From Eledone cirrhosa (taxonomy: Eukaryota): a stretch of 64,000 bases of DNA. The position numbers were made by a program, and so were the translations under genes. How positions within the stretch are numbered: the stretch's first letter is position 1; each line of letters begins with the position of its first letter. Positions 2,875 to 60,641 of this stretch are shown here, piece by piece. The stretch is from NCBI GenBank assembly GCA_964016885.1, contig OZ024745.1, positions 47,368,001 to 47,432,000 on the forward strand, read 5' to 3'. The notes beneath the pieces were generated by a model. The model did not search any database and was not told where the DNA came from. It saw nothing but the letters and a program-made list of their open reading frames with translations.

Positions 2875-3150
2875 AAAAGTATAAATTGAGTTAGAAACTC
2901 AGAATAGACCCTTACAATTAAAATAACTCAAGGGAAAAATGTTCTGAGCCGTATAATATAATTTAATATAATAAAGATAAACACAGATATATACATATAT
3001 GTGTTCAAATTATAAGGGACCAGATTCGCTGTGGTGAATAGGATACTAACTATGAACAATAAGGTTTGCCAGACTCAATTAAAAGAATAAAATTAAAAAA
3101 ATAGAAAATCTGGTCCCTTATAATTTGAACACATATAAGTATAGATGTAT
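2875..3150. repeat. Fold-back element in a TA tract; 31-bp perfect arms 2996-3026 / 3107-3137
   Basis: tatatgtgttcaaattataagggaccagatt ... aatctggtcccttataatttgaacacatata. Confidence 0.8.
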
Positions 3151-3230
3151 GTATATATATATATACATATGTATGTGTGTGTATATATGTATATGTATGT
3201 ATGTATATATATATATATGTATATATATAT

Positions 3231-4315
3231 TATCATCATCATCATCTTACTTCCGCTTTTCCCTGCTTGCAAGGGTTGGCCGGGTCCTATTCAGCACAGC
3301 ATCTCTCCACTTGTCACGGTCCTTCGTTATCTCCTCCGTGAGTTTCAGCGATCTGAGGTCTGCTCTCACCACCTCCGCCCATGTTTTTCGTGGGTCTTCT
3401 GTATTACTGCGTGACGCCAGAGGTCAAAGTCATGTGCCATCCCCTTTGAGAGATCTAATTGGCTAAGGTCGGCTTTTATCACCTCATCCCAGCTCTTCTT
3501 GGGTCTCCCCACTCCTCGGTTTCCATTGACTTCTAGTGCTCTGCACCTTTTTATGCAGCTGTCATCCTTCACATGCATCACATGTCCATACCAACGCAAC
3601 CTCCTCTCCTGCACACAGCATTTAATTCCTCTTATGCTTAGTCTCTCTCTCAATTCGTTTATGCTTTGCCCTCGCGTATATTACTATTACACATCCATCA
3701 GAGCATGCAGGCTTCGTTTCTTTCTAATCTGCGCAAGTCTTCCACAGACAGTGCCCAAGTCTCACTACCATGTAACATTGCTGTTCGTATACACGCATCA
3801 TACAGTTTGCTTTTCATTTTGAGGGAAAAGCCTTTTGCAGCTAGCAGTGGCAGTAGCTCCCTGAACTTCTTCCATCCCGTTCTTACCCTAGTTATTGTAC
3901 TTTCCGAATATCCACCTCCGCTGTTAATTCGGTCACCTAGGTAGCAGAAGTTGTCTACTGTTTCTACAGAGCCCTCCCAGAGTTTGGTGGTACTTGTTTC
4001 CTGTGGCTGTTTGCTGCTTGCTGTCCCAGTACAGCTGCTGCATGTGAAGCCTACATTCTTAATTAAGCTTCCTGAGATCCCGCTACATCTCTTGTGTACC
4101 CATTGTTTGCATTTGGGGCAGAGAATGGAGTTCCTACCTACACCTTTCCTACATAATGAGCAAGGCCATTTTCCTGAGAGGATCTGGGTTCTGTTTTCTC
4201 GTCTACTTATAAGGACCTTAGTCTTTGTCAGGTTGACTTTGAGACCCTTTCTTTCTAGTCCCTGCTTCCAAGTTTGGAATTTCTTCTCTAGTTCTACCAA
4301 AACAATCTCTTCGGA
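3231..4315 (-). mobile_element. 5'-truncated RTE-clade LINE (RT C-terminus with PHD-like Cys cluster, (GAT)n tail)
   Basis: ORFs 3698-4315 and 3366-3653: GLKVNLTKTKV, FCYLGD, MLHGSETW, RRLRWYGHV; frameshift near 3690; (ATC)n at 3231 on the + strand; 5' break at (TA)n. Confidence 0.92.
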
Positions 4316-4374
4316 ATATATATATATATATATACATATATACATATACACACATATATATATATATATAATAA

Positions 4375-4421
4375 TGCATATGATGGCTGCCCCCTCGTTA
4401 TCGAGTATGGCCATTGCACGA
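4375..4421 (-). mobile_element. Probable detached 3' terminus of the RTE at 5411-8937
   Basis: Minus strand reads cgtgcaatggccatactcgataacgagggggcagccatcat, resembling RTE 3' ends; CACGA occurs at both 4417-4421 and 5411-5415. Confidence 0.45.
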
Positions 4422-4479
4422 GAAAAAAAACAAAAAAAAACCATAATAACAATAATAATAATAATAACAACAATAATAA

Positions 4480-5330
4480 TGATTTCTTTATTGGCCACAA
4501 GGGCTGACATCAAGAAAAACATTACAGACGGCACAGGACGGTACGATGTGGGTTTTGTGCGTGTAAATATTTTTATTATTTATATAAGAAAAGAAAAAAA
4601 AGGACATAGAAACATATATATAAACAATAAAAATGAAAATTGAAACAATGAAAAATTCCCCAATAGGGGGGAAACCTCTGAGGGTTACTCGTGGCGAAAA
4701 CCACACAAAAGACCACGGCCACCCTGACCACCAGGGCAAGCACCCTCTCTCAATTTTTCCATCTCTCAAACTACAGACGTATATTCAGAGTTCACTCGGA
4801 CCATTCTCACTACATTCACCCATCTTTCAACAAACTTGCTAGAAGGCAGCACTTGCCTCTCCACCCTGATTTTCCTCTTCAAGTGAAACTTGAAAAAGTT
4901 AATTAGGGATTCGCCGAAGAGGAAAGTGTCTGTCTTTAACCCTTTTAACCTTGTCCACCACACAATCTCTTTCGCCATGGCGACCAGGCAGATGAAAACC
5001 GCCTGCCCTTCCTCCTCGAAGGAAGACGGCGAGACCATCTGCACAATGGACTCAGTCGACAACCGGATCAGTCCTACACGCGACAGCAACTGTTCGACAT
5101 AGCTCCACAAGTCAGCAATGCTCGGGCATTGAACGAGTGCGTGCACGACGGTTTCATCGCTATGCACACATCTCGGACAGGCTCGGCTGACGGCACTTCC
5201 GTGCCTGTAGAGCTTATCTCAAACCGGCAGCGCTCCCCGGTAGCACTGCCAGGCCAGGGATTTTTGGAAGTTATCCATAGGCCCCGGTCTCAAAGTTCTC
5301 CAGAAGAAAGCAAACAGCTGATCTTCTTCG
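4480..5330 (-). mobile_element. L1-clade (Tx1-like) LINE 3' fragment in an (AAT)n tract
   Basis: ORF2 C-terminus WQCYRGALPV*DKLYRHG...CPRC..SDETVVHALVQC (CCHC knuckle); T-rich 3' UTR ending AATAAA then (ATT)n; (AAT/AAC)n on both flanks. Confidence 0.8.
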
Positions 5331-5410
5331 ATAATAATGACAACAACAACAATAATAATATACATATATATATACACACACATGCACACACATAAACATA
5401 TCTATACACA

Positions 5411-8400
5411 CACGATAGCAATTAACAGCGCTGCGATCGAATGTGGCTTTTTAGCCCAGCCAATGATCTAAAATGTCTTGCACAGAGTCGGCAACCAAAA
5501 CATTCACTGGGAATAGCCGGCTGTGGTTGGAGTTCATGTACTTTTGCATGTCGTTTGAGCCCTCCTGCTGATTTACATTCTTTACAATATGCTTGGCAAG
5601 CATGATGAGTAGCATCTCCAACAGCAGCCTGGTAGTCAACCACTGGTCTTACTTTATGAGTGCAAAGATGACTTTCGAGTCCAGCTTTACTTAGGCAGAG
5701 TCTCGCACAGACGCTACATGTCAGCACCATAGGAGGACCTTTGCCGTCTGGAAGTGCAACAGCAATGCCCTTCCTCACATCCCGCTTTACTTTCTCGTAT
5801 GCGATTCGAGATGCCTCAAAGGCAACTTTTCCCTCATATACAGTCTTTCTCCATTTATTACGATCAGCAGCAACATTTTCCCATGTATCAGCAGAGATGT
5901 TAGCGTCTTTCAAAGAGGCTTTCAAGGAATTCTTATACCTCTTTTTTGGTTTATGTGGCGGTCGTTTTCCTTTAACTAACTCCCCATAAAAGAGTTGTTT
6001 TGGTATTCTAGAATCCTTCATCCTGGCAAGGTGACCACTCCAACGGAGATGTTGCTTAAGCACAAGAGCTTCTATACTGTCACACATAGAGCTTTCCAAA
6101 ATCTCGACATCACTGATGTGGTCCCTCCAGTGAACGCCATGGATCCGTCTGAGACACATCTGATGGAAACGCTCCAATTGCTTAAGGTGGTGTCGATATG
6201 TGACCCAGGTCTCGCAGGCATAAAGAAGAGAAGAGAGCACACATGCCTTGTACACCTTTACCTTTGTCTTCTTGCATATGTCTCGCTGACCCCAGAGTCG
6301 CTTTTCTAGCTTTCCGAAAGCATCACTTGCTTTCCTAATCCTGAGTGGGATTTCATTATCAAGGTTGCTGTATCGATTGACAGTGCTTGCCAGGTAGACA
6401 AACTGATCAACCACTCCAAGTTGTTTACCATACACGTAGATATTTGGTTCACTGTACTGCTTACCAGGGGCAGGTTGGTACATTACGACGGTTTTCTTGA
6501 GACTGACAGTCAATCCTAGAGCAGTGCAAGCATCAGAAAATACATTCAAAATGTGCTGCATATCACTCTCTGTGTGCGCTACAAGATCGCAATCATCTGC
6601 ATACAAGAGGTCTCTTATGATTGATGTAAATAGTTTTGTTTTGCAGCAAAGCGCCTGATGTTAAATATGCTGCCTGAGGTTCGATATCGGATGTAAACAC
6701 CATGCTCGCAACTCCTGAATACAATATAGAAAGTATATGGCAAACAGGGTTGGTGCTGGAATATCCCCCTGTTTCACACCATTTTTTACTGAGATAGGCT
6801 CCGACATATTACCTCCGACATTAACCCAAGCCTTCATGTCGTCATGGAAAGACCTAACTAAAGCAAGGAACTTATCAGGGCAACCTGGAGAACCTTCCAT
6901 AATGCATCTCTGTTGACAGTATCGAAAGCCTTTGTCAGATCGACAAAAACCTGATACAGATCCAAACCTTGTTCCATGCACTTCTCCTGGAGCTGTCTAG
7001 CTGAGAAGATCATATCAGTAGTGCCGCATCCAGCACGAAAACCAGATTGACTTTCAGGAAGAACACAATCTGCAATGTGTGTCAGCAGACGGTCCAGAAG
7101 CACCCTACATAAAACTTTCCCTACGACAGAAAGCAATGATATACTTCTGTAGTTCCCATAATCATTCCTGTTACCCTTTCCCTTGTACAAGACCACCATT
7201 ACTGCATCCCTCCAGTCCTCAGGTACGGATTCATTAGCCCATATCCTGCCAAACAAAGAGTGAAGATGTTGCAGGAGTCTCTCACCACCATATTGTAGGA
7301 GCTCAGCATGTATGCCATCCATACCTGGAGACCTTCCACTGTTCAGCTTCGAGATAGCCACTGCAACCTCCACAAGCGTCGGAGGTTCTGCGAGAGCTAC
7401 TTTCACAGGACTTTCTGGAATGAGATTGAGGAAATCTTCATTGACGACAGATGGCTGATTCAAAAGATCATCAAAGTGCTCTCGCCACCTTTGTAGAATT
7501 CCTTGTGAGTCACGAAGAAGTTCTTTGCTGCGAAGCAGTGTCACCAGAGAAGAAGACGGTCCATAAATTTCACGCAAGAGACTGTACAACAGCTTTGTGT
7601 TATTGGAATCTGACGCAGTTTGTATCTCATCAGCCTTCTCACTCCACCACTGATTCTTCATCTGAGAAAGACTCCGCCTAACACGTGATTTCACATCCTT
7701 GAGTTCCTTATGCAACATATTCTTCTCCTGTGGTTTTGCCATCAAGTAGCGTGACAGAGTACACCTCTTATCAGCCAACGAGTCTTCTATATGTTCATCA
7801 TTTTCATTAAACCAGTCTTGATGTTTTCTCTGCACCAATCCCAGAACACGCCTGCCTACATCATAAACCAACTTTTTAAGGGTCGGCCAATCCTCACCAA
7901 GATCTGCAACCTGCATCTCTTCTTGCAATGTCCTCTTCACATTTTTATCCTTAAGACGAGCAGCATTCAATTTTCTGGGCAGGGCAACACCAGGAGCCCG
8001 GATTTTACGTTTAGTGATTAGTTTCACTTTTGCGCGTACCAGGCGGTGGTCCATCCAGCACTCAGCTCCACGAAGAGCACGAACACACTGCACATCCTGT
8101 CTGTCACGCATCCTGACTAGGACGTAGTCCAAAAGATGCCATTCCTTAGATGCAGGATGCATCCATGTGGTCTTAAATTTGTTCTTTTGTTGGAACATGG
8201 TGTTGGTAACACAGATCCAGCTCCTTACACATCTGCAGCAGGAGCATACCATTGTTGTTACACTTTCACACCCCATGCCTTCCGATTACATTCCATGTGT
8301 TAGAATCCCTACCCACTCTAGCATTAAAGTCACCAAGCACGATGACTTTGTCTGCTTGAGGGATATTTCTTAAAACACCTTTCAAGGCATGGTAAAAGGA

Positions 8401-8937
8401 CACTTTTTCTTCATCGACAGAATTCATAGTTGGAGCATACACACTCACCAGGGTCGCATATCTTCCTTTGTCCAGCGGAATTCTCATGGACATAAGACAC
8501 TCACTAATCCCTACTGGGAATTCTTCTAATTTATTCACAAGAACAGTCTCAACAGCAAATGCTACCCTAGCCTCTCTTCTGGTTCCTTCATCTCTTCCTT
8601 TCCAGAAGAATGTATATTCTCCACAAAATTCTGTAAGATGACCATCTCCAGCTAACCTCGTCTCAGATAAAGCCACGATGTCAAGATCGTAAGGTCGAAG
8701 CTCCTTTGCAACGAGAGCGGTCCTTCGTTCAGGACGTTCCAAGGAATCCCTGTCAAGCAGCGTCCGTACGTTCCAGCAGCCAAGACTAAATGCCTTGTTT
8801 GGCTCTATTACAGTGGCACGATGACGAGCGGGCCCAGGCTGTGATAACCTGGAGACCCTGCCCTTATTGCCAACCATCTCCCTTGTTCCAGAACCTTTAC
8901 TGCCAATTATCTCTTTTATATTGTTTTGGAATATCAT
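5411..8937 (-). mobile_element. Near full-length RTE (BovB-like) LINE: APE endonuclease, RT and three C-terminal C2H2 fingers; several frameshifts
   Basis: GCWNVRTLLDR, PERRTALVAKEL, ALSETRL, LGDFNARVG (APE); YRSISLLS, QSGFRAG, FVDLTKAFDTV, GVKQGD, YADD (RT); HLRWSGH; CxxC...HxxxH fingers. Confidence 0.95.
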
Positions 8938-9493
8938 TGAATTGGAAAAAAAAAAAAAAGTAATAATAATAGTAACAATAATAATAATAATACACTATTA
9001 ATAATTATTAATTAATGCAATCGTGCAATGTCTGTGCGTGACGAATATTTTTAAAGTGAGGAAAGACTGTGCACTGAGCCAATCCCACTCTCTGAGCAAC
9101 AGTAGCTATAACCCAAAAAGAAGAAAAGATCAACATCATCGGTAACTACTGAACCGCAGGTTTTATGTCGGAGTTAACCCAGTTTCCTGAGATGCCTTCT
9201 CCTAGAAGAATGCATATATATACATATATACATATATATACATATATATACATATATACATATATACATACCTCTCTCCTCACCTGTCCCAGCCCTAACA
9301 AACCCTGCCATTATTATGTATATATTTTCTATTCATTTCTCATGGGATTGGCTTGTTTACTCTGTATTTCTTTTTCATATCTGTGGGAAAAATATTTTTA
9401 AATGTCGAAAATATATTTTATGTAATTTGAACAAATCCTTTAATTTATTATTTTGTTAGTTGTTAAAAATTAACAAAAAGCAGTATCTTGCTT

Positions 9494-12204: not shown

Positions 12205-13268
12205 TATCATCATCATCATCATCATCATCATCATCGTTTAACGTCCACATTCCATGCTTGCATGGGTTTGGACGGGAGTTTTCCCACTTGAGGCAAGAGT
12301 GGTTGTCTTGCTCGCATAGGACTGTCTGACGGGTTTTCTACGGCTGGATGCTCTTCCTGACACCAACCACATTTACAGTGTGGAACTGGGAGGTTTTTAC
12401 CGTGTTACCTACACGGCCACATTACAGCGTGGACTGTGTGTTTTTTTGTCGTGACACCTACACGATCTCATTTGTTTCGGGCTGGATGTTGTGGTACCAA
12501 CATAACTTTACATTGAAAGGGGTGGTGTGGATGGGGTGGGGGTGTATTTTGTTAGAGGTGCCTACTGACTGTAGTAGGTTTCACTTTGTACTTAGGTAAG
12601 GCGGGTCTTCTCTATTACTGTGTAGCGCCAAAGGTCTCGGTCCAGTGACATTGTCTTGGAGAGGTGTAAGTGTGTGAGGTCGGAATTTATCAAGTCATCC
12701 CAGGTTTTTCTGGGTCTGCCTACTCCGTGGCTACCGTCTATTTTTATTGCCCTGCTCTTTTTTATACAGCTGTCGTCTTTCATGCGCATCACGTGACCAT
12801 ACCAACGTAGTCTTCTCTCGAGTAAACAACATCTGATCCCTCTTATTTCTAATTTTTCCCTTAGTTCGTTTATACTTTGCCGTTCACGTATATTACTATT
12901 ACACATCCAGCGGAGCAAGCAAGCTTCGTTCCTCTCCAGCCTGCATATATCTTCTTCACACAATGCCCAGGTCTCACTGCCATGCAACATTGCTGTTCGT
13001 ATGCAGGCATCATGCAGCCTGCCTTTCATTTTTAGGGAGAACCGTTTAGCGGCTAATAGTGGTATAAGCTCTCTGAACTTTTTCCATCCAGTTCTGACTC
13101 TAGCTACTGCACTTTCAGAGCACCCTCTCCCACTGCTGATTTTGTCACCCAGGTAACGGAAGCTGTCCACTATTTCTATAGAACCATCTGTGCAATGGAG
13201 TGAGCTAGTATTTTGTGGGCACTTGCTGCTACTTATTGCACCAGAGCACCGGCTACATGTAAAATCTA
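12205..13268 (-). mobile_element. 5'-truncated RTE LINE with complete 3' UTR and (GAT)n tail
   Basis: ORF 12592-13170 (FRYLGD, MLHGSETW, RRLRWYGHV) runs directly into the 3'-UTR repeat, linking that abundant repeat to this LINE family. Confidence 0.92.
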
Positions 13269-14180
13269 TGTATATATATATATATAATATATATATATAT
13301 GCTATTAATTGACAGTAGCACTAAGACAGCATTGAGCTTAATAGGAGTGTGTATGAAAGTTTATACTATATGTTTATATACAGTAAACATATGAGAGCCT
13401 TGCTATAAAATTATTATTATTTTTTTTATTATGAAAAAATTAATTTTCTTCCTTTTGCTCTGTGAACAAATCACAGATATCTCAGTAGCCATTGAGAATG
13501 CCAGACACTACTGTTTCAAGATTTGTTAATCTCTTATCAGTGACATTTACTCAACTGGTACTGACATGGAAATAAACTAGAGTCTAATTGATTTTACATG
13601 ATGAACATTGGCTGGTTATAATTAATTAGCAGTAGCACTAAGACAGCATTAAGGATAATTGGGATGTATATGTTTTCCTTTTCTCCTTTCCTTATCACTC
13701 CTACGTGCCAACAAACTCCTTTTTTAATCATCTATATGTTTCACCTGCTTTTCACCCACCTCACAACTTTCCATCTCACCATAGTGGCCACTGGTGAACA
13801 TATGCATTGCTTTAGTGCTGTAATTTTTCTGGTGGTTATGTCTTCAATCTCTAGGTCAGTCAATCTATATATTGTCTGGTTCAATAGCACAAATAGCAAT
13901 AGCAATAGCACAAATAGCAAAACAATGAATATGAGAATATCCTTAGATAATGGAATGAAAACAATTTCTCTCCATGGATTAAATAAAGGGTTCTTGTATG
14001 AAATCCAAAGAATCTCACCAAATACAACAGGACATTGAAGAAGTGTTGAAGCTTCACTTACCCAAACATTATGACATTAATAACCAAGATGAGGATACTA
14101 ATCCAAAATATCAATGAATAGAAGTAGTAATTCATTATCTGAAAATTCAGGCAAAAATTGTTGGTCATTACTTGAACCAT

Positions 14181-17922: not shown

Positions 17923-18474
17923 ATTGTTATACTTTGGGAGGTTTATGCTGCCAATAGAAAACACACACGCCTATTGGATTTCACTTCAATTTATTGTTAT
18001 AGTTTCCCAGTTGGTTAGTTTAATAACCAGATGTTTGTTTTTGATTCTCATCAAATTTTTTTCGTGACCTCGTTAGTGACTACTTTTGTTATTATTTTGT
18101 TTCTTCCCCTTGTACTGTCCTACACCATCCTGTTTTTGTGAGGCTCCCAAAAATAAGATGGCGTAGGACAGAAAAAATACCTTTAGAAAATAGAAAGACA
18201 TAATTGTAGTGTGTGTGGACATTCTCTTGAGATGAGTGAAATGTAGGCAAGGAGAATTACATTCATTAGGTGAAGCAGGAATAATAAATTCTTGCTTTGA
18301 AAAAAAATCATATTCTTGCTATGAAAAAATCATATTCTTGCTATGAAAAAATCATATTCTTGCTATGAAAAAATCAGGAGACTAATAATCTTTTCAGAGT
18401 AGCAGAATAATTTTCAGTACCATATAAGGAAACTGATATTTACAGTAGTAATATGATTGTATATATATATATAT

Positions 18475-18679
18475 ATAGGAAAAGAGTCAGGACCCCGACG
18501 GCTGAGCTCCGGCCGTTTCGACAGCTACTTCTGAACTGATTTCAGAAATGGCTGTCAAAACAGCCGGAGCTCAGCCGTCTGGGTCCTGACACTTTTACTA
18601 TTACCCACTCTACTACCCATAATAGCGAGTACTCTGGTGCATTATGGTCCACCTGGTTCCTTACCACACTTCCTTCATT
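18475..18679 (+). mobile_element. Fold-back Penelope-like remnant: about 117-bp imperfect palindrome plus tail homologous to the Penelope 3' end
   Basis: Palindrome 18480-18596; tail 18597-18679 matches the reverse complement of 55726-55807; (TA)n on both sides. Confidence 0.8.
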
Positions 18680-18965: not shown

Positions 18966-20054
18966 TATATATATATAAATCAGTCATCAGGTCCCATCTC
19001 TTTATAATATGTATATATATATTGCATACATACTTTGCTGCAAAGTATGGTTTCTTTAAAGTTACTCACAATGAGTAAATAATTATGGATCAACCATTTG
19101 TGAAAACATGTAATGTTTTGAACCTATATCAAAATGAAGAGTTTGATGTTATTAATAACGATATGCACAGTGAAAAATACAGCCGAAGGGAAAATATTTT
19201 GACTTTTTATAAAATTTACTTCACCCTCTCTCTTTTCATTATCAGATTGTTTTAGTGTTATTTCAATTAATAGTTAAATAGTATTATTTTTATTGATAAC
19301 ATATATTTATTGAAAATATACAAATGAGAATTTTGTTTTATTTAATTAACTATTTTTATTTTCAAAGTTAATATTCATTTCTGTATAAGCACTGTGAAAT
19401 TTGAAAGAAAGAAATCATAACTATTTTATTCATGTAACATTACTTGCTATTACCTACAGTGGACAATCCCGAATCCCTATAAAATGAATTTTTAAAATAC
19501 CAAAAAATGAGAACCCCAACAGCTTGTAAACTCCCAAATTCTAAAAACTGAAAATATACTTAAAGGAAAACAAATATTAAAAAAAAAAACGTTCTTAAAA
19601 GATACTTATTGCAGTTCTAAAAGGGATATTTATTTGAAGAAACATTATTTACATTTTTTAAGCAAATGTCAATCAAAAATATCAGAAGCATAAATTTATT
19701 AAAGAAATAGTAAAAAAAAAAGAAGCATTTCTAAACGATATTAACTTATTATATATATAAAATATTTCCTTAATAAAATGCATGTTTGATATTTTTTATC
19801 AACATTTATTCAGATTTAAATAATATATTTGCTAAATAAATACTCTTTGTTAAAACTATAAATAAATAAATATCTTTTATTATTTTTTTTTCCTGGAGTA
19901 TATTTTCAGTCTTTTGAATTTTGTTGTCAGTGTTTTATTTCTAAATTGAATCTTATAAACCATTTAAGATTCTGTATATGACAGGTAACACTGTAGTCTA
20001 TATTTTTTAATAATTGTAAGAAACTTAATGTTTCATTCTCTTTGTCTTATTTAA

Positions 20055-20238: not shown

Positions 20239-21903
20239 TCAAAACAATAAAAAAAATAACTTCAGTAGCATACTGATAATTTCTCACTTCATTGACTGAT
20301 ACATTGAAAAAATGAATCAATTTGAAATCAACATTTAAAAATAGGAATAAATAAATTAGTACATAAATAAATTTAGTTTTAATAAATATTTCACTATTCA
20401 TTTTAAATCATTTGAAAATGTAATATATATTGAAATAAGATTGGCTTGCCAAATTTAGATTTTGTTTTAATAAATTAATTCATTTAAATATTAGAAATAT
20501 TATCCAAAGAGGTTATTGATGGTCATTAGCAAAATCAATAAAATGAAACTTTTTCGTCAGAGAATGACAAAGGGCCTTGCTCAAAACATTAGATATATTC
20601 TCTCTTCATGGCAACTTAACATACCTCTTTTTTTGTTTGTACTGAAAACACACACTCACACACACACACACATATATATATATGATCCTCAGATTGGTAT
20701 TGCCAAAAAATATTTAGTATTTGCAAAGTATGTTAGTCTAAATTTTAATGGATATGCATGAGTTTCATAGTAAAATGGGAAGCATTGTAATTTTATTGTT
20801 TATATGATTTCTTTGTTAAGGAAATGAAGAAGTTAAGTTGCTTTATATTTTTAATGAGATTTTATTGAAACTTGAAGGAACAAGTAAAAATTCTGGTGTA
20901 AAATTACTTTCTTGAGAAAAGATGACATCCACTTATCAAAATTCAATAATTTTATTAGAGTTTTTTTATATAACGAAAATGTTTGCATTGACACTTGATT
21001 TTTGATTTCTAAACATATGTAAATTATTTAGATGATGAAATTGATCATTCACCCTTATATTTCATCACAGTTTTGTAGCAATGGCTCTCAAAGTACAGGG
21101 CCAAAGATACTTTTGGCACCCCAACCTTAAATAACAACCATGATAGACCAGAGGAGACTCTCCGGCACCCTTACCATCCCCATTATCACTCCTTACTATT
21201 ATTGTATTTGCCTGAGAATATTAAAAGCTAAACTGAAATTTTATTTAATCCATCACAAATTCCATCTAGTTTCAATAATAAATCTCATTAATAAGTCATG
21301 TAGTTAAACTTCTTTTTATCTTTGAATTCCTTACACAATTATTTAACTAGTTCCACACACCATTCTCTGATTTTGATTTTCATAATTTACTGTCACTTTT
21401 ATAGTTTTCAATGTTATTAAAACAAACCATATTGTATGTTGTTCTTATTTTCTTGCTTTTGTTTATTATATCTTAATTATTTGTGAATATCATATGTCAA
21501 TGTTGTCATCTATTTGTTTCATTACATTTTCAGAAATCCACATTATCATTATTGTTATCATTAATCATTGCCATAATCATTGTTATTTATGTCATTAATT
21601 TTTTTTTCGCCAATCTGTACAGAAAACCCACTGATTGATGTACTAACATTTTTGAAAATGTTATCAACACCATTTCAGTAACTACTATTATTAATCATAG
21701 TACTCCTAAGTATGACAACAGTGATTGTTGGTTTCTTTACTTATTCCCTATCCCTCCTGTATTCCTTGAAAGCCTCCACCAACCCTCACTTTGAAGCTAA
21801 AATAGCTCTGTCCACTTTAGCAATCTACTCTGATTGATTGAAGTCCACTAATCCATCTGCTTGCCTACCCCAAATGTTTGGTCCTACACTGTATTTTATC
21901 TAG

Positions 21904-23471: not shown

Positions 23472-23812
23472 ATAAGTGGTTCAGTAGATTCATGGTTTAA
23501 TGAGGAAGGTACGAAAATCAGCACTCTATGCTATGCCAGAGTGTAAATCTTAAAAACAAAATGAGGTGATGGATGGCCCAGGATCCATGTAAATGCTACA
23601 GATCCGACTCCAGCCTGATGTGCTCATCAGACTTGTTAATCAAACCAAACCGGATGAGATTTTGGCTTTGTTTGATTAACAAGTCTGATGAGCACATCAG
23701 GCTGGAGTCAGGTCTATAGCATTTACATGGATCCTGGGCCACCCATCTGTGGAACGGTCATAACTGTGTATAATCAATAAAGACTCTAATGTGAGACCTC
23801 GTTTTATTTTTA
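23472..23812. repeat. Fold-back element; about 84-bp arms 23568-23651 / 23664-23747 plus outer 17-bp arms
   Basis: gatggatggcccaggatccatgtaaatgct ... agcatttacatggatcctgggccacccatc; TA tracts on both flanks. Confidence 0.85.
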
Positions 23813-23829
23813 ATATATATGTGCGTGTG

Positions 23830-35637: not shown

Positions 35638-36050
35638 CGGGAGAGAGTGGCAATAGGAAGTCAGATTTGCAGCTTGTTTTGAAACTTTATTGCATATTAC
35701 AACTGTTTCGATATCGATCAGCTCGGGTTTGATCAGGTGATCGGATCCCGACTCTTAATCAACACCTCCTGAGATATGCGAGTTTACATGGGTCGTCCCA
35801 TCCAAACTGTTGACAGATATTCTGTGTTCGTTTTATATACATGTTATTGGGTTTAGGTATATATAAATGAAAATGATGAAGTTTCATTTACATGTAGTCA
35901 GTGTTTTATTGTGTATCAATTTGTTACACATGTTTCACAGAGGATTGGCTCAAGGTCACCCATAGAAGTTTTGGACCCACGTAACAGGCTGATACACAAT
36001 AAAATACTAGCTACATGTAAACAAAACTTCAACGTTTTCCTTAATATATA
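35638..36050 (-). mobile_element. Fold-back Penelope-like terminal remnant carrying the hammerhead
   Basis: Imperfect arms about 35859-35918 / 35991-36050; TA on both flanks. Confidence 0.65.
35692..35779 (-). ncRNA. Type I hammerhead ribozyme motif with extended stem II; core variant CUCAGGA
   Basis: Minus strand: GCATAT CTCAGGA [GGTGTTGATTA...TGATCGATATC] GAAAC AGTT GTA ATATGC, then AATAAA. 6-bp stem I, GUA cleavage triplet, G5-to-C change in the core. Confidence 0.75.
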
Positions 36051-36120
36051 CACACTACCTGTGTATTAAGTGCTTACTTTGGTACCAACACCAGTACTTT
36101 ACTGAATCACATACACTATG

Positions 36121-36150
<30 letters not shown>

Positions 36151-36153
<3 letters not shown>

Positions 36154-36618
36154 GGCGATGAATTTGTTTTGCGAGGTTTTTGATATGAAATCGTGTGTCA
36201 AAACAAATATTGTTATACTTGGGGAGGGTCATATTGTTATAATAATATTGCCAGAAATAATAACAGAACACACTCACTGTTTGGTTGGTTTTCGCTTCTG
36301 TATCTTTTATAACAGTTAATTCATTCGGTCCTCAAAGTTTACCATTGACTGACCAACGGTCAAAAATACAACAGGAGGAACATAATAGCACCACTGACGA
36401 TGTTGCAAATGTGCAATGAAAGAACTTTATTAGACTATATATATGTGTTTATATCTATATTATATCTGTATTTTTGACCGTTGGTCAGTCAATGGTAAAC
36501 ATTGAGGACCGAATGAATTAACTGATATAAAAGATACAGTAGTGAAAACCAACCAAACAGTGTGTTCTGTTATTAATTCTGACAATATTATTACAACAAT
36601 ATGACCCTGCCCAAGTAT

Positions 36619-36626
<8 letters not shown>
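36151..36626. repeat. Fold-back element; about 160-bp arms 36207-36370 / 36467-36626 plus a 56-bp unpaired tail
   Basis: Arms begin atattgttatacttggg; same family as 55370-55577 and 17922-17990; bounded by pure (TA)n. Confidence 0.88.
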
Positions 36627-37630: not shown

Positions 37631-39168
37631 ATGATGAGATCAATAGGATTGGGTATAACACTCATTTGTTACCAAGTGCATTAAAGCTCAATGTGTTAAT
37701 GGCATGGAAAATACAGAATATAATAATTCAATTCAAGTGAATAACCAAAGATTTTATTGTTTAAATCATTTTATTTATTTCTACGATCATTTTGATTTAT
37801 CAAAACACAATTGGAAATATCAATAACAATTTGTAGATTAATTAATTAATTACTTAATTAAATCAACAAACATGGCAATTACATTTCAGAATTCTCCTCG
37901 GGATATATACATTTAGATTTAGGGAATAAAAGTTTTGATTACGAGATAGGCATGCAATAATATGCAAATTTACAGAAAGCATAGAAAGTTTTAAAAGCAA
38001 ATGTGAGAGGTACATAAGTAACAAAGAGTATTCATGTTTAGCATTATAGAATGTGATTTAAGCAACAAAGAAGTATAATATGTAGAGGATATAAGTAGAA
38101 GATTTGATCAATAGTGTTAAGAACATTAAATTAAAAAAAACATTTCCTTTACAGAAACTCGTTCTTAAATGATCTCAACACTATTATATGCAATTTCAGA
38201 AAACAAAAAAAATACACTGGTTCTGGTAGAAAAAAACTAAAAATATTTATCGTGTTGGTTTCCATTCTTACAAATCATTTATCTATAAAGAATTAAACAA
38301 AAACTATATAAAAAAAAATAGACAAAAACGTTAGTGACATAAACAATGAAATGAGAAAGATTGTAAATTATCTAGATCTTTAAACATATACAGAACCTTT
38401 CACTCCTTTGGTGTGTTAGTATTCTGTAAGTAAAGTATACATGTATTTGAATACATGAACAGTAATTACAGCATATGGACTTATATCCTTTAGATATACA
38501 GTTGTCTCCCAGTATTTGTGGGGATTCCATTTCTAGAGCACCCGCGAAGAGTGAAAAACCTCCAATATTGGACGTGTTCCATAAAAATGTCTATAAACGT
38601 CAAAATATAATAAAAAAAGAGGGAGCATCTTATGCGAAAGGGCGTCCAATAGGCGTCCAATAGGCTGGCAAATACTGTATATTATTTTTAATAATTTAGC
38701 GTTAAAAAAGCCATTAAAAAAATCACAAGATATTTACGATTCCACGAATATGCAGTGGTTTCCACGAACAATTATTAGTTAGGTTCTAAGGAACATTCCG
38801 TGGATGCTGAGGGTACACTGTACTTCTTTGTTGCTTAAATCACATTCTATAATGCTAAACATTAATACTCTTTGCTACTTCTCACATTTGCTTTTAAAAC
38901 TTTCTATGCTTTCTGTAAATTTGCTTATTATTGCATGCCTATCTGGTAATTAAAACTTTTATTCCCTAAATCTAAATATATATTTCCTGAGGAGATTTCT
39001 GAAATGTAATTGCCATGTTTGTTTAATTAATTGTTTAATTAACTAATTAAATTATCTACAAATTGTTATTGATATTTCCAATTGCAGTTTGATAAATCAA
39101 AATGATCATAGAAAGGAATAAAATGATTTGAACGATAAAATCTTTCGTTATTTACCTAGATTGAAGTG
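37631..39168. repeat. Large fold-back element; about 350-bp arms about 37720-38095 / 38479-39168, right arm interrupted by a MITE
   Basis: e.g. gcattatagaatgtgatttaagcaacaaagaagta versus tacttctttgttgcttaaatcacattctataatgc; TA-rich microsatellite on both flanks; about 90-bp unpaired tail on the left. Confidence 0.9.
38499..38820. mobile_element. Tigger/pogo-like MITE with TA target duplication
   Basis: TA-CAGTTGTCTCCCAGTATTTGTGG ... CCGTGGATGCTGAGGGTACACTG-TA. Confidence 0.75.
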
Positions 39169-40599: not shown

Positions 40600-41309
40600 T
40601 TAAGTTTCTCTCAGGTCAAGACTCCAACACAGTTTCAATTTCTAGTTGATGTCATTCACTTCTTTTACTCTGCTAATTCTGCTGGAGTAATTATGAATAT
40701 CATAATTTTCAGTTCCTCTCTTCTGAAAATATGTGGCTTCAGAGCATTAATCCTTATAAGAGAGGAAGTGTTGAGAAGTACTTTGTCAATATAATATCTA
40801 TACTAACAACATGTGGCATTAATAAAAAGCAGGAAATAAATTTGTGTAGAACTTAATAATAAAATCATTGGGAGAATCATCTATTCCTGGCATTTTATTT
40901 CTTCCCCCTCATCATCATTTTAGGGCCATTTTCCATGCTGGCATGGGTTGGGTGTGTTATCACAGTCTGAAACTAGATAAGTCAGAGGATTATGTTCCAT
41001 CTTGGGATGGTATTTAAAATATATTACTTTAAAATGTCAGCTCTAACATGATATATATATATAAATATATATGGTAGGTGGGTGACAGGCTGAGATGCAG
41101 AATTGAAATTTTTAAGGTATGCTATTTAATATAGATATTCGCATAGTTTAGTTAGATTTTATATATTTTGCATCATTTATTATTATCATCATTGTAAAGA
41201 AATTATTATTGTAATGTCTTCTGTGTTACCTTAAAGTTACTGCGCTGTTGTTGTTATTATTGTTATTATCAATTTGTTTTGTTGTTTGATTATTTCCTTC
41301 AAAATACAG

Positions 41310-41497
41310 ATGCTCGGGCAACTGGTCCAAATGATATTACAGATCACCCAGAAAATGATATTTGGTTCAGAAGAGAGAAAAAGCTGGTTGATCAATATAT
41401 TATCAAATCCGGAATGATGAGATTCTCATTTTTACTGGAATGTTGTGCTCCAGGTTCTTTACCTGATCCGCAGCTTGTTGCTGCAATGTTGACTCTG
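41310..41497 (+). CDS. unc80: UNC80 exon (DARATGPND...SGMMRFSFLLECCAPGSLPDPQLVAAMLTL), phase 1-0
   Basis: AG at 41308-41309, GT at 41498; RFxFLLECC.PG..PD.QL.AAML motif recalled as characteristic of UNC80. Confidence 0.9.
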
Positions 41498-41994
41498 GTA
41501 AATTTTCCCTTATATTCTGTTTTTCTTTTTCTTTGTTCCTTTGTTTTCATTGAGAGAAATAGGCTCCACCTGGCTCTATCTGCCCAACATATGCTGCATA
41601 AACACCTCCTCCCATGACCCTAGAGTGTGATGTTCTGAGGCTATTGATAGAAAATAAATTGACCTCCACTGGTTTCAATAACATGCAAGCAGCTGAGTAT
41701 TCCACAAACATGTATCTTTAAGATAATTGTGAAAGAGATTCAGAATGACAGTGTGTGACAAGGTTGGCTGTCTAAAATACAAGCCTGACCTACCTGAAAT
41801 TCTTTCAAATCATGCTGTTTACCTAATTTCATCCACACACTGCTTGGGTTGACACTTATCCAAGACTCCACTATGTGAGATCAAATTTATAATCCCTCAT
41901 TCTGCCATACTGCATCTATGGAAATTATTTGGCTTTGCTGCATCCAAGATCATTGGTGTCATGTTTCTTGTTTGTTTATGTCATGTATGGTAAA

Positions 41995-43647: not shown

Positions 43648-43953
43648 TTGGTACCACAACATCCAGTCCAAATAAATGAGTTAATGAGATCGAGATCGTG
43701 TAGATGACACGACAAAAAAAAAAACACACAGTCCCGCTGTAATGTGGCCGTGTAGGTAACACGGTAAAAAGTTCCCAGTTCCACACTGTAAATGTGGTTG
43801 GTGTTAGGAAGGGCATCCAGCCATAGAAAACCTGCCAGATAGTCCTATATAAGCGAAACACGGCCACCCGATCAACCTTGCCTCAAGTGGGACAACTCCC
43901 GTCTAACCCATGCTAGCGTGGAAGATAGACATTAAACGAAGATGATGATGATG
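43648..43953 (+). mobile_element. RTE 3'-UTR repeat
   Basis: Family match; (GAT)n tail. Confidence 0.88.
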
Positions 43954-45311: not shown

Positions 45312-45588
45312 CATCATCATCATCGTTTAACGTCCATCTTCCACGCTTGCATGGGTTTGGATGGGAATTTTCCCACTTGAGGCAAGATTGGTTGTCTCGC
45401 TCATATAGGACTATCTGGCGGGTTTTCTATGGCTGGATGCCCTTCCTAACACCAACCACGTTTACAGTGTGGACTGGGAGGTTTTTACCGTGTTACCTAC
45501 ACGACCACATTACAGCGTGGACTGTGTGTTTTTTTGTCGTGACACCTACACGACCTCATTTATTTCGGACTGGATGTTGTGGTACCAA
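45312..45588 (-). mobile_element. RTE 3'-UTR repeat
   Basis: Reverse-complement homolog of 43648-43953. Confidence 0.9.
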
Positions 45589-45881
45589 TATATATATACT
45601 CAATAAATGTAATGAAGACATCATAAATCATCCTTTTTATTATTATTATGATTATATATATATAAAGAGAGAGAGAGAGATGTATTAGGTAGATTAGTAA
45701 CATGTTTAAATCAATCGAATAAAGTATTAAACTTTGGTTATATATTTATTCATTATACATACACATATGATGTCAACATGAATGGACCTGTTATTTTTAT
45801 CTAAAGACAATTTTTTCCAATTCCAACCTGCCCGTCCCCTCAACCCGCCCGTTCCCTCAATCTATCTTATTTCTCATTCTT

Positions 45882-54850: not shown

Positions 54851-54911
<61 letters not shown>

Positions 54912-54925
54912 TATATATATATATA
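54565..54925. repeat. (TA)n/(CA)n/(TG)n microsatellite
   Basis: Direct inspection. Confidence 0.95.
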
Positions 54926-55278
54926 TCATCATCATCATCATCATCAACGTTTAACGTCCGTGTTCCACGCTTGCATGGGTTTGGACGGGGGTTTTCCCAC
55001 TTGAGGCAAGAGTGATTGTCCTGCTCGCATAGGACTGTCTGGCAGGTTTTCTACAGTTGGATGCCCTTCCTAATACCAACCACATTTACAGTGTGGGTCT
55101 GGGAGGTTTTTACCGTGTTGCCTACACGGCCACATTACAGCGTGGACTGTGTGTTTTTTGTCGTGACACCTACACGATCTCATTTGTTTCGGCCTGGATG
55201 GTGTGGCACCAACATAACTTTACATAGAAGGGGGGCGGTGTGGATGGGGTGGGGGTGGTGGGACGGGGGTGTATTTTG
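54925..55278 (-). mobile_element. Young RTE 3'-UTR repeat
   Basis: Nearly identical to 59412-59657 and close to 12205-12550. Confidence 0.9.
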
Positions 55279-55287
55279 TATATACAC

Positions 55288-55348
<61 letters not shown>

Positions 55349-55369
55349 CATATATATACATATATATAT

Positions 55370-55577
55370 ATATTGTTATACTTTGGGAGGGTCATGTTGC
55401 CAATAAGAAACACACGCACCAGTTGCTTTCACTTCAATTTATTATAATAAATTGAAGTGAAAGCAACTGGTGCGTGTGTTTCTTATTGGCAACATGACCC
55501 TCCCAAAGTATAACAATATCGGTTTCAACACACGTTTTCAGATAAAGAATCTTGCTAAACAAATTCAGAAACGAAAT
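55370..55577. repeat. Perfect 150-bp spacerless palindrome (55370-55519) plus a 58-bp tail
   Basis: Centre atta|taat at 55444/55445; arms match base for base by eye; (TA)n on both sides. Confidence 0.95.
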
Positions 55578-55600
55578 ATATATATATATCTATATATACA

Positions 55601-55728
<128 letters not shown>

Positions 55729-55849
55729 GAAGGAAATGTGGTAAGGAACCAGGTGGACCATAACGCACCAAAGTACTCAATACTTAGGGTAGTAGAGTGG
55801 GTAATAGGAACCAGTAAAGAAGCCTTCAATACATCAAAAGTCTTTATTA

Positions 55850-55887
55850 GCCAACAATGTTTCGTCCTATTAAGGACTCATCTGGGC
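55850..55887 (-). ncRNA. Minimal type I hammerhead motif in the Penelope 3' end; core variant CAGAUGA
   Basis: Minus strand: GCC CAGATGA GTCCT TAAT AGGAC GAAAC ATT GTT GGC, followed by TAATAAA. Confidence 0.75.
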
Positions 55888-57481
55888 AAGTAAAGCTACA
55901 AGAAGCACTATCAGCCAATACAAGCCAAAAACTCAGAAGAATATGGAGTATACATCTATTAAAGCTTAGCCAACTTTTCCTTGATATCTTTCCTAAGACC
56001 AAGAGTGAGCAGTTACAAACATAGATATAGACCAAATAGCAAGGAAGTGATTAACATGTTGAACCCACATTGTAAATATTGTATAATGTAAAAACTTGAA
56101 ACACAAATGGCAATATAATGCGAGAATTACAGTACGATATAGAATATAATATAATATAATAGATGGTGATAATAAAAAGCTTAATATATGCATATATATA
56201 TCCACATATATATACATTAGTACAAACACAAACTAACACTTATTAAGTATCTAAACATATATATATATAATGTTTACAGTTTAATATAATAAAGATAAAA
56301 ATAAGAGTAAAGAAAAAAATAAAAATAAAATATAATATATAATTCCCTGTCAGTGTGCATAAACAATATAAAAACATTATAATAACATTATAATAACAAT
56401 ATTATAATATATTGGCATCAAAAGATATACAAAATTACATCATATATATAATTCAAGGTTAACAAATAGTATAAAGTTTTACACAGGGTAAGAATCATAT
56501 AGAACTAAATTGTGTTGAAAAAATATCTATACCATTGCAACAAATACACGGAGGTCAAGTCATTTTACATTGGCATAAATATTACCAAAATATCACAAAA
56601 TATTACAAAATATAACAGAACAGTACTTCAAATAACATATATTAAAATCTATAATACGATTACATAAAAATGATATGATATAACAACGTTAATATCAAAC
56701 AGAGTCTAAGGAAATGCTTAATATATATATTTACGTGGTTGACATACACAGACATATATTAATGAAGTTAGATGAATCCAACAGAGAGCGTGTGGTAGTA
56801 AAAAAATAAATAAAATAAACCGAAGATCGAAAAACAAAAACAAGTATATTTACTTAGGTGTCACAAGCGGTTAAGTAAAAGAAAAGATAAAAATGTAAAC
56901 GGAGAATTGACTAGAAAACCTTTTTAAATTAATTAATATTAAAAGTATTTAAAATACATATTTAGTCACTTCAAAATTGGCTAGGGTTTAAGTCATCAAA
57001 AACGTATAAGTTTAAGATATTTCAATAAAATTATCAAGAATAGAGTAAAATATGCTCCGTTCAGTCGAATAACGTTATCAAACAAAAGGACTCTAAATAG
57101 AACTATGGTAGACCAATGTGAACAGAAAGAAGAGAGGTTATGGAGGATAGGAAGGAGCATAAAAGTAAAATCAATATATTATATAATATCATAAAAGGAG
57201 CATAAAGGTGAAATTTATATATAGTATAATAGAAGGGGCGGATATTAAGTGTGTAGAGGAGGAGGTACATTAGTTGAATGAGACTCCAACCAAAGTATTT
57301 AATAAGATATAAACTCATAAGGTGTTAGTAGTGAAACTATAATAATGCTTAAGAAGATAGATAGGGTGTGGTAGCCAAAAGACTATGGAAACTAAAATCA
57401 AAAAGCTGTAAAAAACTAATAATAATAAAGATGATGGTAATCAAAATGAACCTAAACAAAAAAGATAAGGAAATATAGCAG

Positions 57482-60413
57482 CTAATGGATACGATTTAAA
57501 CTACCATAACTTTTAGGTCTATAATAGAAGAAAGAATTAGAAATGGCATGGGGGCAGGAAGAAAATATCTCAGACTTTCTATTAAGCAAAACTTCCCTAG
57601 AGAAAATTATAGAGTGGGTCTCTAGGATACAGAGATTACAGAATTTAGTGTGTGTTGATAGGTTATTAGAGCGTGCTACTATACGCCAATTAAGGCTATA
57701 TGGCATGCCAGCCCCTTTAAGATCCCAGATATGGTGTGCTAAAGAAGTAGAGTTCTTAAACTTAACATGCTTAAAATTAGAGATATGAGAATTAAACCTA
57801 GTTTTAAAAGTATTAGATGTGGAGCCTATATATGAGCTATTAGAAGAATTAGTCTTAACTTCACAAGCATAAACAATGTTCCTAGAGAGGCAGTGACCAT
57901 TTAAAGGGCAGTTAATACTTACTCTACAGTTACACTTCCGGGTGCTATTGACCGGCTGAATGAGTGATGCATCACTCCTAGGGTTATTATGAGATAAGGT
58001 CTGCTCAGGTGGTAAGGCATTAATGGATCTATCAAGACTAGTAGTACGCAAAGAGGAGTAGCTGTCCCTAATTTTCTTATTGTTAGTGCTAGCTAAATGA
58101 GAACTAATATTAGGGGTGGTAGAGAATGATAGTTTAATTACATTTTTATTAAAAATACCATGGTATTTATTAGTAGGAGAAAAATTTTTCTCTAAGATAG
58201 AAAAGAAAGACCTAGGAATGTTAGTTAATACTTCATGATCATAAGGCGGGTTAAAATAAGTATTCAGTCTCCTCCTATTTCTAACCTTACCAACTCTACC
58301 GTTATCCAGTATCCCACTAATAGGATCAGGGTTACTACGAGGACTAGTTGAAACAACATTATTAGAAGCAGCCAAAACCCTATTGAGTCTCCTTCTGTTT
58401 CTACCTTTAGTATATCTACTGTTATCTGGAATCATATCAATAGGATTAGGGTTACTACCAGGATCAGTTGAAACAACACTATTAGAATTAGTAAAAACAT
58501 TACCACTGGGTGAGCGATCAGAGTGCCTAACTTGTTCCCTAGAACTAATCCCGAAAAGTGTACCATTAGACTCACTATTACGATTACGGTAGCTTAACCT
58601 ATGGATGGGTTCGGATACACTTATGGGATTTCTACAATTCTTATGCTTTCTACTCCCATTCATGGCCATATTATGGGATATTATGTTATTATTATTATGG
58701 GTAAACGGAGACTTTCTAAGGTTGTTCTCATTATAACGTATTTTACCAGAGTAACCAGAGTTAGCTAGGGTATTATTATAGTACTCTGCATGTGAATTAA
58801 ATATTCCTATATCCTTAGAGAGTGTGGAAATTCTATTAGATACACCGTTAATTATAGAGCTAATCATAGATTTGGGGTGGTTAGAATTGGGATTAACATA
58901 AGAGAGTATCTCATTTGGCTTATGGAAGGGTTTATAACTATTAGTGACCAAGTCCAAAGTCACATCTAAAAAGTTGACCGCTCTATCATTTCTATCAATC
59001 GTGATCGAAAGGTTAAAATTTTTTTAAGATTTATAAAGTTTCTTCCTATTATGCTCAATGTTATTGGTGCTAGAGTTTATCACAAACAATGCATCGTCAC
59101 GATAAAGTCCGCCTTTAAAGTGCGGAAAGGTAACATACAGTTCATTTAGGAGGAACAGCCCAACAAGATCAGTTACCTGGGCCGAATCACTCGAACCCAT
59201 TGTAACATCGAAATTGTTGGGTGTGTTTTTACGCGTCCAAAGTGTATCCTCGAATTTGATGATAGTCCTACGGGCTGCTAGTATAACATCAATCTGCGGT
59301 CGTGTAAGGCTAGATACTCGCATGGCCATAATTAAGGCTTTATTAAGGAGGATAGGTGAAATCGACATGTAATAGGCATCAATATCAAACTGGATAAACC
59401 TACTAGACTCATCATCATCAACGTTTAACGTCCGTGTTCCACGCTTGCATGGGTTTGGACGGGGGTTTTCCCACTTGAGGCAAGAGTGATTGTCTTGCTC
59501 GCATAGGACTGTCTGGCAGGTTTTCTACAGTTGGATGCCCTTCCTAACACCAACCACATTTACAGTGTGGGTCTGGGAGGTTTTTACCGTGTTGCCTACA
59601 CGGCCACATTACAGCGTGGACTGTGTGTTTTTTTGTCGTGACACCTACACGATCTCAAGTTTATTAATACCAGAGAACCAATCTATAACATCCTTAGTGT
59701 TCCCCCATAGATTAAAATGAACCTTTTCCCTAACGGCTGGTATAATCAGGTCAAGGATTTTCTTACTAATTATAGCTATATCAGACTTAGAAGGACTAAT
59801 GAGTCTAACAGAAGGATTACTAATGAAGTCTACCTTATGATCCTTAAGAGTGAATCTCGGTTCCCTAGGGTAATATGGCTGGGTATACTTATCAAGGCCC
59901 AGGTCCGAAACTATCTTGAGACCCTCATTATTGATATTATCAAAATTATCTTGCGTTGTCTTTTTGTAATTTTTATGCAGCTCCTTATAAATAAAATTAC
60001 GGTAAGCATTGTAATCCATAGAGTAAAGATTCTTAGTCTTGTCAGCCGGGACAAGAATAGACTTATTCCCTTTAAAATCCTTAACAATATTCTTAAGTTT
60101 AGACTGGAACCTGTCGAACTTATTATAGTTCCCATATCTATTATACGGCCTATACTTTATATTTTTGACAAGGGAAAGTAAATCGTTCTTAAAATTATCT
60201 AATAGAACATTATGCGGCGGGCTCTTATAAGTTATTGAAACGAGTCCTATCCCGGGGGTCAATCCCATTCCTATTAATATCAAAGTGGAAAGCACGCCAT
60301 CTAATCCTTTTTACGAAGGAGTTAACACTAGCAATTAAGAGTTTTTCATAAGTATTTCTAGAGGGGATGGGAATATTCTTCAGAGATAAAGGCAGGTAGC
60401 TCTTTGTTAGCAT
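57482..60413 (-). pseudogene. Disrupted Penelope-like polyprotein (about 890 aa when repaired)
   Basis: ORF pieces 60225-60443, 59645-60295, 59024-59368 and 57482-58963; the last three are in the same frame; in-frame TAA at 59024-59026. Confidence 0.88.
59412..59657 (-). mobile_element. 246-bp RTE 3'-UTR insertion in the Penelope RT
   Basis: CTCA at both junctions (59408-59411 and 59654-59657); removing it restores NKLESSRFIQFDIDAYYMSI. Confidence 0.93.
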
Positions 60414-60430
60414 ACTGTCAGATATATATA

Positions 60431-60641
60431 AAGGCCAAAACACCGGTATATAGGAAGAAGCTCAACCAATCGGGAGCCGTAACAAGAATTAAAATACTAG
60501 AGTGTGTTGGAGTTAAACACCTTGGTTTATTTTTTATAATTCTTCGGCTCTGTTTAATTACATTGAGCTATATCTTATACTGTCATTTCTTTAATATGAA
60601 GAGGGTGTTTAACTCCAACACACTCTAGTATTTTAATTCTT
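60431..60641. repeat. Fold-back element; perfect 38-bp arms 60484-60521 / 60604-60641 plus a 53-bp tail
   Basis: aagaattaaaatactagagtgtgttggagttaaacacc and its exact reverse complement; TA tracts on both flanks. Confidence 0.9.

Follow-up and report, generated by a model that had tools for sequence, protein, structure and literature searches.

Hairpins with a single tail in (TA)n-rich DNA of Eledone cirrhosa are Penelope-like insertions whose arms were probably primed at both target ends

How do hairpins with a tail at one end only come to lie in runs of TA? The question is raised by the window, by which we mean the whole 64,000-nt stretch of the 3.0-Gb Eledone cirrhosa genome analysed here, C5:47368001-47432000. 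Its base composition is AT-rich, (TA)n is abundant, and one UNC80 exon was mapped in it (41198-41617, + strand; Pfam UNC80, E 2e-18); the elements likely lie in an intron, and the likely host gene is unc-80. A preliminary description listed eight such hairpins, called E1 to E8 here in order, and read them as truncated insertions of several TA-targeting Penelope families whose cDNA folds back. We find that several Penelope-like element (PLE) families gave rise to the hairpins, as 5'-truncated insertions into (TA)n, and that the tails are the 3' ends of elements coding for a reverse transcriptase (RT) and a GIY-YIG endonuclease or, in E1, of a non-coding hammerhead unit. Fold-back is not favoured: the tail-less arm has a fixed start of its own, often reaches further 5' and is also found alone. 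We consider it probable that the two arms are two separate reverse transcripts, one primed at each cut end of the target.

The evidence comes mainly from H2, a young coding family found outside the window, elsewhere in the genome. Its 49-nt arm motif has 2287 exact matches, compared with 0 for the backwards control. The 100 of these matches that were listed gave 82 loci, all of which were examined; to be sampled, a locus had to have an arm of 128 nt or more containing a perfect 49-mer, and all loci lie on a single contig, within the first 208 Mb of C1. A first arm mapping had low-complexity false matches, and the pairing counts rest on a later mapping. H2 ends at two fixed sites, -1 or -78. 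Among the 55 two-armed loci, 53 pair one tailed with one tail-less arm, two have a tail on both, and none pairs two tail-less arms (binomial p 9e-14 against independent choice of end). The other loci comprise nine tail-less and six tailed single arms (no partner found within 350 nt), 10 that run off the fetched stretch and two that could not be assigned.

Arm lengths follow no such order. In 11 of the 53 pairs the tail-less arm exceeds the tailed one by more than 5 nt, in 12 the tailed arm is the longer, and in 30 the two agree within 5 nt. Five of the 53 tailed arms measure just 47-81 nt and are joined, via 2-3 shared bases, to a tail-less arm with a reach of 133-139; they therefore cannot have templated their partners. 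The nine long pairs are likewise unordered (for example 550/1191 and 2320/407), and both arms fall at 125-150 in 35 pairs. H2 arms stop preferentially in the region of hammerhead stem II: the ends of 9 of the 15 single arms lie between -130 and -147, immediately upstream of that stem's 3' strand. Of the 12 long pairs that could be measured (two more were unmeasurable), 10 have arms that resemble each other more than they do the median other copy, which fits both two-ended priming and fold-back. Unrelated filler of up to ~270 bp lies between the arms of two H2 copies (L055, L034).

The older E2 family, sampled at 61 loci, gave 28 pairs of a tailed and a tail-less arm, two tail-less pairs, one tailed pair and nine loci that could not be assigned; 21 loci have no partner arm within 1.5 kb, four of them with only an inverted piece of tail. 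Each family has an outer and an inner TA-like end site, 56-107 nt apart. The true tails are thus of this length and constant within each family, and not of ~50-220 bp as first described. The expectation that the 3' end stays constant within a family while the turn point varies was borne out in the truncation series of H2 and E2.

W, the coding element of the window, is made up as follows.

55818-60483, - strand: W, a coding Hydra-type PLE forming the long tail-less arm; RT then GIY-YIG, in several frames (a broken copy), with a hammerhead at ~55900-55855
60483-60414, - strand: 5' untranslated region of W, with the ATG at 60413
59408-59654: insert inside W resembling a short interspersed element (SINE), which interrupts the RT
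55727-55817, - strand: H2 tail of 91 nt that matches a natural H2 copy at 100% over 90 nt
60484-60521, - strand: upstream 38-nt remnant of the pseudo-long terminal repeat (pLTR), a junction of the 3' end of W with its 5' start; left arm of "E8"
60522-60641, + strand: tailed arm of W (last 120 nt), inverted relative to the open reading frame (ORF); right part of "E8"

E8 is accordingly the 5' end of a coding element that spans 55727-60641. What had been taken for its tail (60431-60483) and TA run (60422-60430) is internal 5' untranslated sequence of W, and 60300-60490 is colinear in 40/40 scored W copies. The junction of 3' end and 5' start, a partial tandem pLTR, was present in 20/20 loci. Of 25 W 3' ends, 15 carry the family's own tail, nine stop at the inner site and one, the window copy, carries the H2 tail. 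In that copy the 4.7-kb tail-less arm stops at -121 and the 120-nt tailed arm covers -120 to -1, so that the arms abut. Two other fetched W pairs have one tail each; in one of them the tail-less arm is the longer, in the other the tailed arm. The reported match between the E2 tail and the Penelope 3' terminus is real (18595-18678 to 55810-55727, 89% over 84 nt), but the terminus in question is the foreign H2 tail. At the chimeric junction, 55727-55818, the H2 tail is fused to W via a 2-nt TT overlap; the W and H2 endonucleases are 36% identical. The fusion is a single event; the foreign tail could be explained by an H2 stub already in place or by a template jump. Between the RT and endonuclease of W, 58261-58498 is in frame, rich in Asn and Ser, and contains a 118-bp tandem duplication; it recalls the N-rich inserts of PMC3846280.

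Self-comparison of the window recovered inverted arms in 8/8 intervals. Six stand as drawn in the preliminary description, and E4 and E8 had been mis-delimited. Folding z-scores were -8.3 to -37 for seven elements (against 30 dinucleotide shuffles each; E6 was left out).

2875-3156, - strand: E1; tailed arm 3101-2875 (the unit's last 230 nt), short inverted arm 3107-3156
18475-18679, + strand: E2; hairpin 18481-18595 and 78-nt tail 18596-18678; Hydra-type, H2-related
23472-23819, - strand: E3; tailed arm 23472-23651, tail-less inverted arm 23663-23819; hammerhead-bearing family
35638-35855, - strand: tail-less arm from a different PLE family of Hydra type, inserted separately, with degenerate hammerhead core and AATAAA
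35862-36122, + strand: E4 as corrected; the old hairpin 35862-36051 (72% arm match) with a right-hand tail 36052-36122
36151-36626, - strand: E5, Neptune-like; tailed arm of 223 nt 36368-36151, tail-less arm 36626-36365
37631-39168, - strand: E6, old Hydra-type; arms 37729-38075 and 38821-39163, tail of ~92 nt
55370-55577, + strand: E7, Neptune-like, E5-related; perfect hairpin 55370-55519 and 58-nt tail 55520-55577

The E2 arm holds the 3' strand of hammerhead stem II, GAAAC and stem III. E3 looks two-tailed because of a ~45-bp internal deletion in its tailed arm (23472-23651). The hammerhead and AATAAA once assigned to the tail of the 35638 element belong to the separate arm at 35638-35855, whose core is degenerate here (CTCAGGA); in other copies this family has a tail of its own further 3'. 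The E4 hairpin, its own family by search, appears to be a relative of the E3 family. The tail-less arm of E5 spans -57 to -327 and extends beyond the tailed arm on the 5' side; the 745-bp spacer of E6 (38076-38820) is mostly without assignment to any family. The arms of E7 are 100% identical; those of the other elements differ by 6-28%. Sequences said to be mostly unrelated include two related sets, E5/E7 (83% over 78 nt) and, by eye, E3/E4, which share tail and hammerhead motifs. Contigs placed on the window showed very high summed depth on the E7 arm and the H2 tail and otherwise added little.

First-look candidates from tail- or arm-anchored searches numbered 1202 for E1, 3079 for E2, 289 for E3, 1886 for the E4 hairpin, 1831 for E5, 66 for E6 and 1618 for the 35638 family, all of them lower bounds and not copy numbers. 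Walking upstream from the tails, we reached RT/GIY-YIG ORFs for H2 (L040, L044, and a 544-aa frame in L438), E2 (L238, 68% to the H2 endonuclease), E6 (L174, L175) and E7 (L056, L057), and a GIY-YIG ORF for the 35638 family (L265). For E5 such an RT/GIY-YIG ORF lay upstream in sense in 5/25 loci and inverted in two. Two further candidates for the 35638 family, L267 and L270, were rejected as lying beyond the element's inverted arm. The expected adjacency of tails and RT/GIY-YIG elements thus holds for E2, E5, E6, E7 and E8, which trace to coding PLE families, Hydra-type or Neptune-like; for E3 and E4 no such link was found in the loci sampled. Pfam detected neither an RT nor a GIY-YIG domain in the PLE proteins, and a PDB sequence search was likewise negative; their Atlas neighbours carry RVT_1 and GIY-YIG.

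Judged by motifs and not by an RT tree, W and H2 would fall in the Hydra clade. The translations of W, H2 and L265 have a C-terminal endonuclease with a CxCx5C linker and without CCHH, features that define that clade (PMC8557442). W reads ADKT and has RWR in place of RWK; the N-terminus of H2 is absent from the recovered sequence, and the DKT/RWK reading rests on W. The proteins of E5 and E7 have, in translation, a CX4CxxC linker and a CCHH-type endonuclease, and these motifs would make them Neptune-like. W, H2 and the other coding families would then be further members of known PLE clades.

Hammerheads were identified by motif reading. The W core is CTGATGA in 21/25 loci, and H2 has the variant TTGAGAAG in 13/14 copies. 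Across the H2 and E2 families (L040, L044, L238, L244-L247), the core TTGAGAAG or TTGATAAG replaces CTGANGA with stems I-III kept, and a stem shows a paired change between the two, CGGCTA/TAGCCG versus CAGCTA/TAGCTG. In L056, of the E7 family, a CTGAAGAG...GAAA stretch is visible that the hammerhead descriptor did not accept. The 150 Rfam rows covered, of 211, held microsatellite and miRNA noise below gathering scores and no hammerhead.

A stem of the form RCTC-N10..24-GAGY lies directly 3' of the inner site, in tails that show no other relationship; it was noticed post hoc and then counted. It occurs in H2 (30/30, ACTC/GAGT), W (14/15) and E1 (16/25; both GCTC/GAGC) and E3 (15/25), compared with 2-3% of shuffles. 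The 35638 family gave 0/25, its sampled ends being without tail.

E1 departs from the original picture of truncated coding elements: the inserted unit is a non-autonomous PLE derivative of 516 bp that is non-coding and bears a hammerhead. Thirty loci holding the unit's 5' part were sampled. Its longest stop-free frame is 59/72 aa, and continuation into an ORF was seen in 0/30 of these loci; a candidate coding link through an upstream GIY-YIG match (L097) was rejected as lying beyond the element's inverted arm. The core pattern of a type I hammerhead was matched in 16/30 loci, and BLAST found the partial tandem of 3' end and 5' start in 25/30. The unit has two end points, 516 or ~439, and 15 loci end tail-less, 10 tailed and five elsewhere. 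Like the non-LTR retrozymes (bioRxiv 10.64898/2026.07.22.740005), E1 is non-coding and has a type I hammerhead and PLE-type ends; it differs from them in occurring as monomers with partial pLTR. A tandem of two complete hammerhead units was found in none of the 30 loci, a non-exhaustive sample, and with partial tandems alone in view we did not file E1 as a retrozyme.

In the mechanism that we consider probable, the two target 3' ends would prime at different sites, one at the outer and one at the inner, on a single RNA or on two sibling RNAs. The polymerases would both move 5'-ward, often stalling at the ribozyme fold; the cDNA ends would then be joined head to head, with a few bases of filler or microhomology at the junction, and filled in. 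The tail would be the stretch separating the two start sites. The stem just 3' of the inner site, taken as RCTC-N10..30-GAGY, may act as a docking signal for the protein, which would allow mobilisation in trans of ORF-less units such as E1. Two-ended priming is favoured over fold-back because the tail-less arm is the longer one in 11/53 H2 pairs and stands alone in nine loci. The balance also tips this way because cutting and extension of both strands of the target, from two start sites that bracket the tail, were seen in vitro with purified PLE protein (PMC11167929).

Several observations weigh against this mechanism. The 30 of 53 H2 pairs with arms within 5 nt are what fold-back predicts, and so is the correlation of arm lengths (Spearman 0.50, p 0.002; 35 short pairs). 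The shared stop zone, in which 9 of the 15 single arms end as well, explains part of this. Long palindromes are prone to deletion, and unequal and single arms could therefore be secondary. The tail stem is absent from E5 (0/25 loci) and, at the N10..24 spacing, from E6 (0/25), where GCTC/GAGC appears in 9/25 loci once a longer loop of 22-34 nt is allowed. A sense-linked ORF was not found for E3 in 25+20+4 loci or for the E4 hairpin in 15+5; both show hammerhead motifs and the two-end rule, and E3 the tail stem.

We also asked how far the data would fit fold-back, or self-priming, in which cDNA started at the outer site folds and is copied back, an endonuclease resolves the product at the inner TA-like site, and unequal or single arms arise by later palindrome deletion. 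A model close to this was proposed in PMC3846280. It predicts exactly one tail per insertion, as seen in 53/55, and near-symmetric pairs with correlated lengths; copy-specific variants are mirrored across both arms, and the inner sites resemble the target. However, it needs secondary deletion for the 11/53 pairs, the nine tail-less singles and most of the E1 units that end tail-less (15 in all), and in the window copy of W a 4.5-kb deletion ending exactly at the start of the other arm. Pairs with the longer tailed arm are not in excess (12 versus 11), and the in vitro reaction extends each of the target strands and uses both sites as RT starts (PMC11167929). We therefore regard fold-back as unlikely, if still worth weighing. 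A mixture is possible, with short symmetric hairpins made via fold-back. A stricter form of two-ended priming, in which integration is obligately two-ended, a protein dimer on the RCTC/GAGY stem assigns outer and inner starts to the target ends, the hammerhead is a built-in stop and hairpins are the default product, seems to us doubtful.

The elements could also be miniature inverted-repeat transposable elements (MITEs) or other DNA-transposon derivatives with a TA target duplication, given their inverted arms, TA flanks and high copy number. The 30 top-ranked whole-element E2 matches are near-uniform in length, a look of fixed length that we rejected as ranking bias: tail- and arm-anchored samples range from 14 nt to more than 2 kb and run into RT/GIY-YIG ORFs, the ends are asymmetric, and hammerheads are present. 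Variable length, asymmetric ends and RT/GIY-YIG links refute the MITE reading for E2, E5, E6, E7 and E8, in agreement with the original remark that the one-sided tails are unlike MITEs, and overall we find it very improbable. Least credible of all is that the hairpins are assembly or library chimeras from palindromic reads, as the identical E7 arms might suggest, since the other arms diverge, the ends fall at identical family-specific bases in dozens of unrelated loci, and the flanks are not mirrored.

To see how common such hairpins are, we applied a strict filter (an inverted repeat with TA on one side and a 35-140-nt tail followed by TA on the other). The 200 kb flanking the window yielded 11 hairpins and arbitrary stretches totalling 200 kb yielded 16, with 1 and 0 in the respective mirror-repeat controls; in the window the filter recovered 5/8 elements and one SINE pair (mirror control 2). 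The density is thus about one per 12-18 kb before correction for misses (one per 8 kb of intron had first been estimated), and arbitrary stretches are alike, so that the intron is not special. Extrapolation gives ~2 x 10^5 hairpins genome-wide. Of the 27 hairpins from this blind scan, nine match families known here, one is a SINE pair and 17 match none. Twelve of the 27 tails carry the stem, compared with 3% of shuffled ones, and three of these 12 match H2/E2-type references. In the scanned stretches (L441-L480), 9 of the 17 unmatched TA-bounded asymmetric hairpins carry the stem, which may point to more Hydra-type families.

The window holds other repeats as well. More decayed inverted repeats, with no family match, lie at 18115-18171, 19536-19921, 20848-21294, 28968-29111, 34808-34978 and 35242-35543. 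The SINE-like repeat (~250-290 bp) recurs at 12236-12517, 43648-43939, 45325-45592 and 54947-55229 besides the copy in W at 59408-59654, and the pair 43648/45588 forms a chance inverted repeat. Translations reveal apurinic/apyrimidinic-endonuclease/RT non-LTR fragments, which we take to be RTE-like, at 5422-8994 (-), 3698-4579 (-), 12592-13320 (-) and 62400-64000 (+). An 88-bp tandem array occupies 76-977, its copies ~99.8% identical.

The hairpin architecture itself is known. PLE insertions with an inverted copy, a tail and (TA)n targeting have been described (PMC8557442), and our elements share with the PLEs of Craig et al. 2021 (PMC8557442 Fig. 2) and Arkhipova et al. 2013 (PMC3846280) the head-to-head inverted 5'-truncated pLTR copy, the one-end tail, the partial tandem pLTR, (TA)n and hammerheads. 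They differ in that most copies are ORF-less solo hairpins at the density given above, tails measure 56-107 nt compared with 30-40, and the pairing of one tailed with one tail-less arm is nearly strict with arm lengths unordered. W and H2 resemble members of the Hydra clade such as Hydra-1_Obim in the order of RT then GIY-YIG, the CxCx5C linker, the lack of CCHH and (TA)n insertion, and W also in DKT, RWR as a form of RWK and a canonical hammerhead. W is ~4.5 kb, whereas that clade is generally below 3 kb, and the H2 core departs from the canonical hammerhead (PMC8557442). E5 and E7 match Neptune-type PLEs (PMC8557442) by motif only and have tails without the RCTC/GAGY stem.

Poseidon of Anolis (PAc; Frangieh et al. 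2024, PMC11167929), from another clade, shares the cutting and extension of both strands, two RT starts bracketing the tail and an AT-rich target. In the text available, its starts are not tied to opposite target ends or inverted arms, and the later steps are unvalidated. The origin of PLE inverted repeats and the one-sided tail is given as undefined in PMC8557442 and unvalidated in PMC11167929. We found no paper that states the H2 pairing rule or links PLE inverted arms to twin priming, in a literature whose coverage was thin for subscription papers, earlier PLE reviews among them, and did not extend to the supplementary figures of PMC11167929; a term search of that paper's three text supplements gave no match.

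In the twin priming of L1, the second target end primes internally and the inverted segment is joined by microhomology. In the PLEs described here, unlike L1, priming by the second end begins at one constant position close to the 3' end, and the sequences of the two arms mostly overlap, which yields a hairpin and not an inversion with deletion.

What do these hairpins mean for the genome that carries them? Elements of this kind would be mistaken for MITEs in annotation. If transcribed in introns such as that of unc-80, they may form long double-stranded RNA (dsRNA) for editing or small-RNA pathways. If the obligate form of two-ended priming were true, Penelope transposition would have seeded the extrapolated ~2 x 10^5 dsRNA-forming hairpins, with ORF-less units riding along. 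Because this genome has thousands of young, short copies with two sharp ends, counts can separate the models, and the 78-nt tail, the inner TA-like site and the covarying stem together provide a minimal substrate. The value of these families is that they offer a clean natural test of an open step in Penelope transposition.

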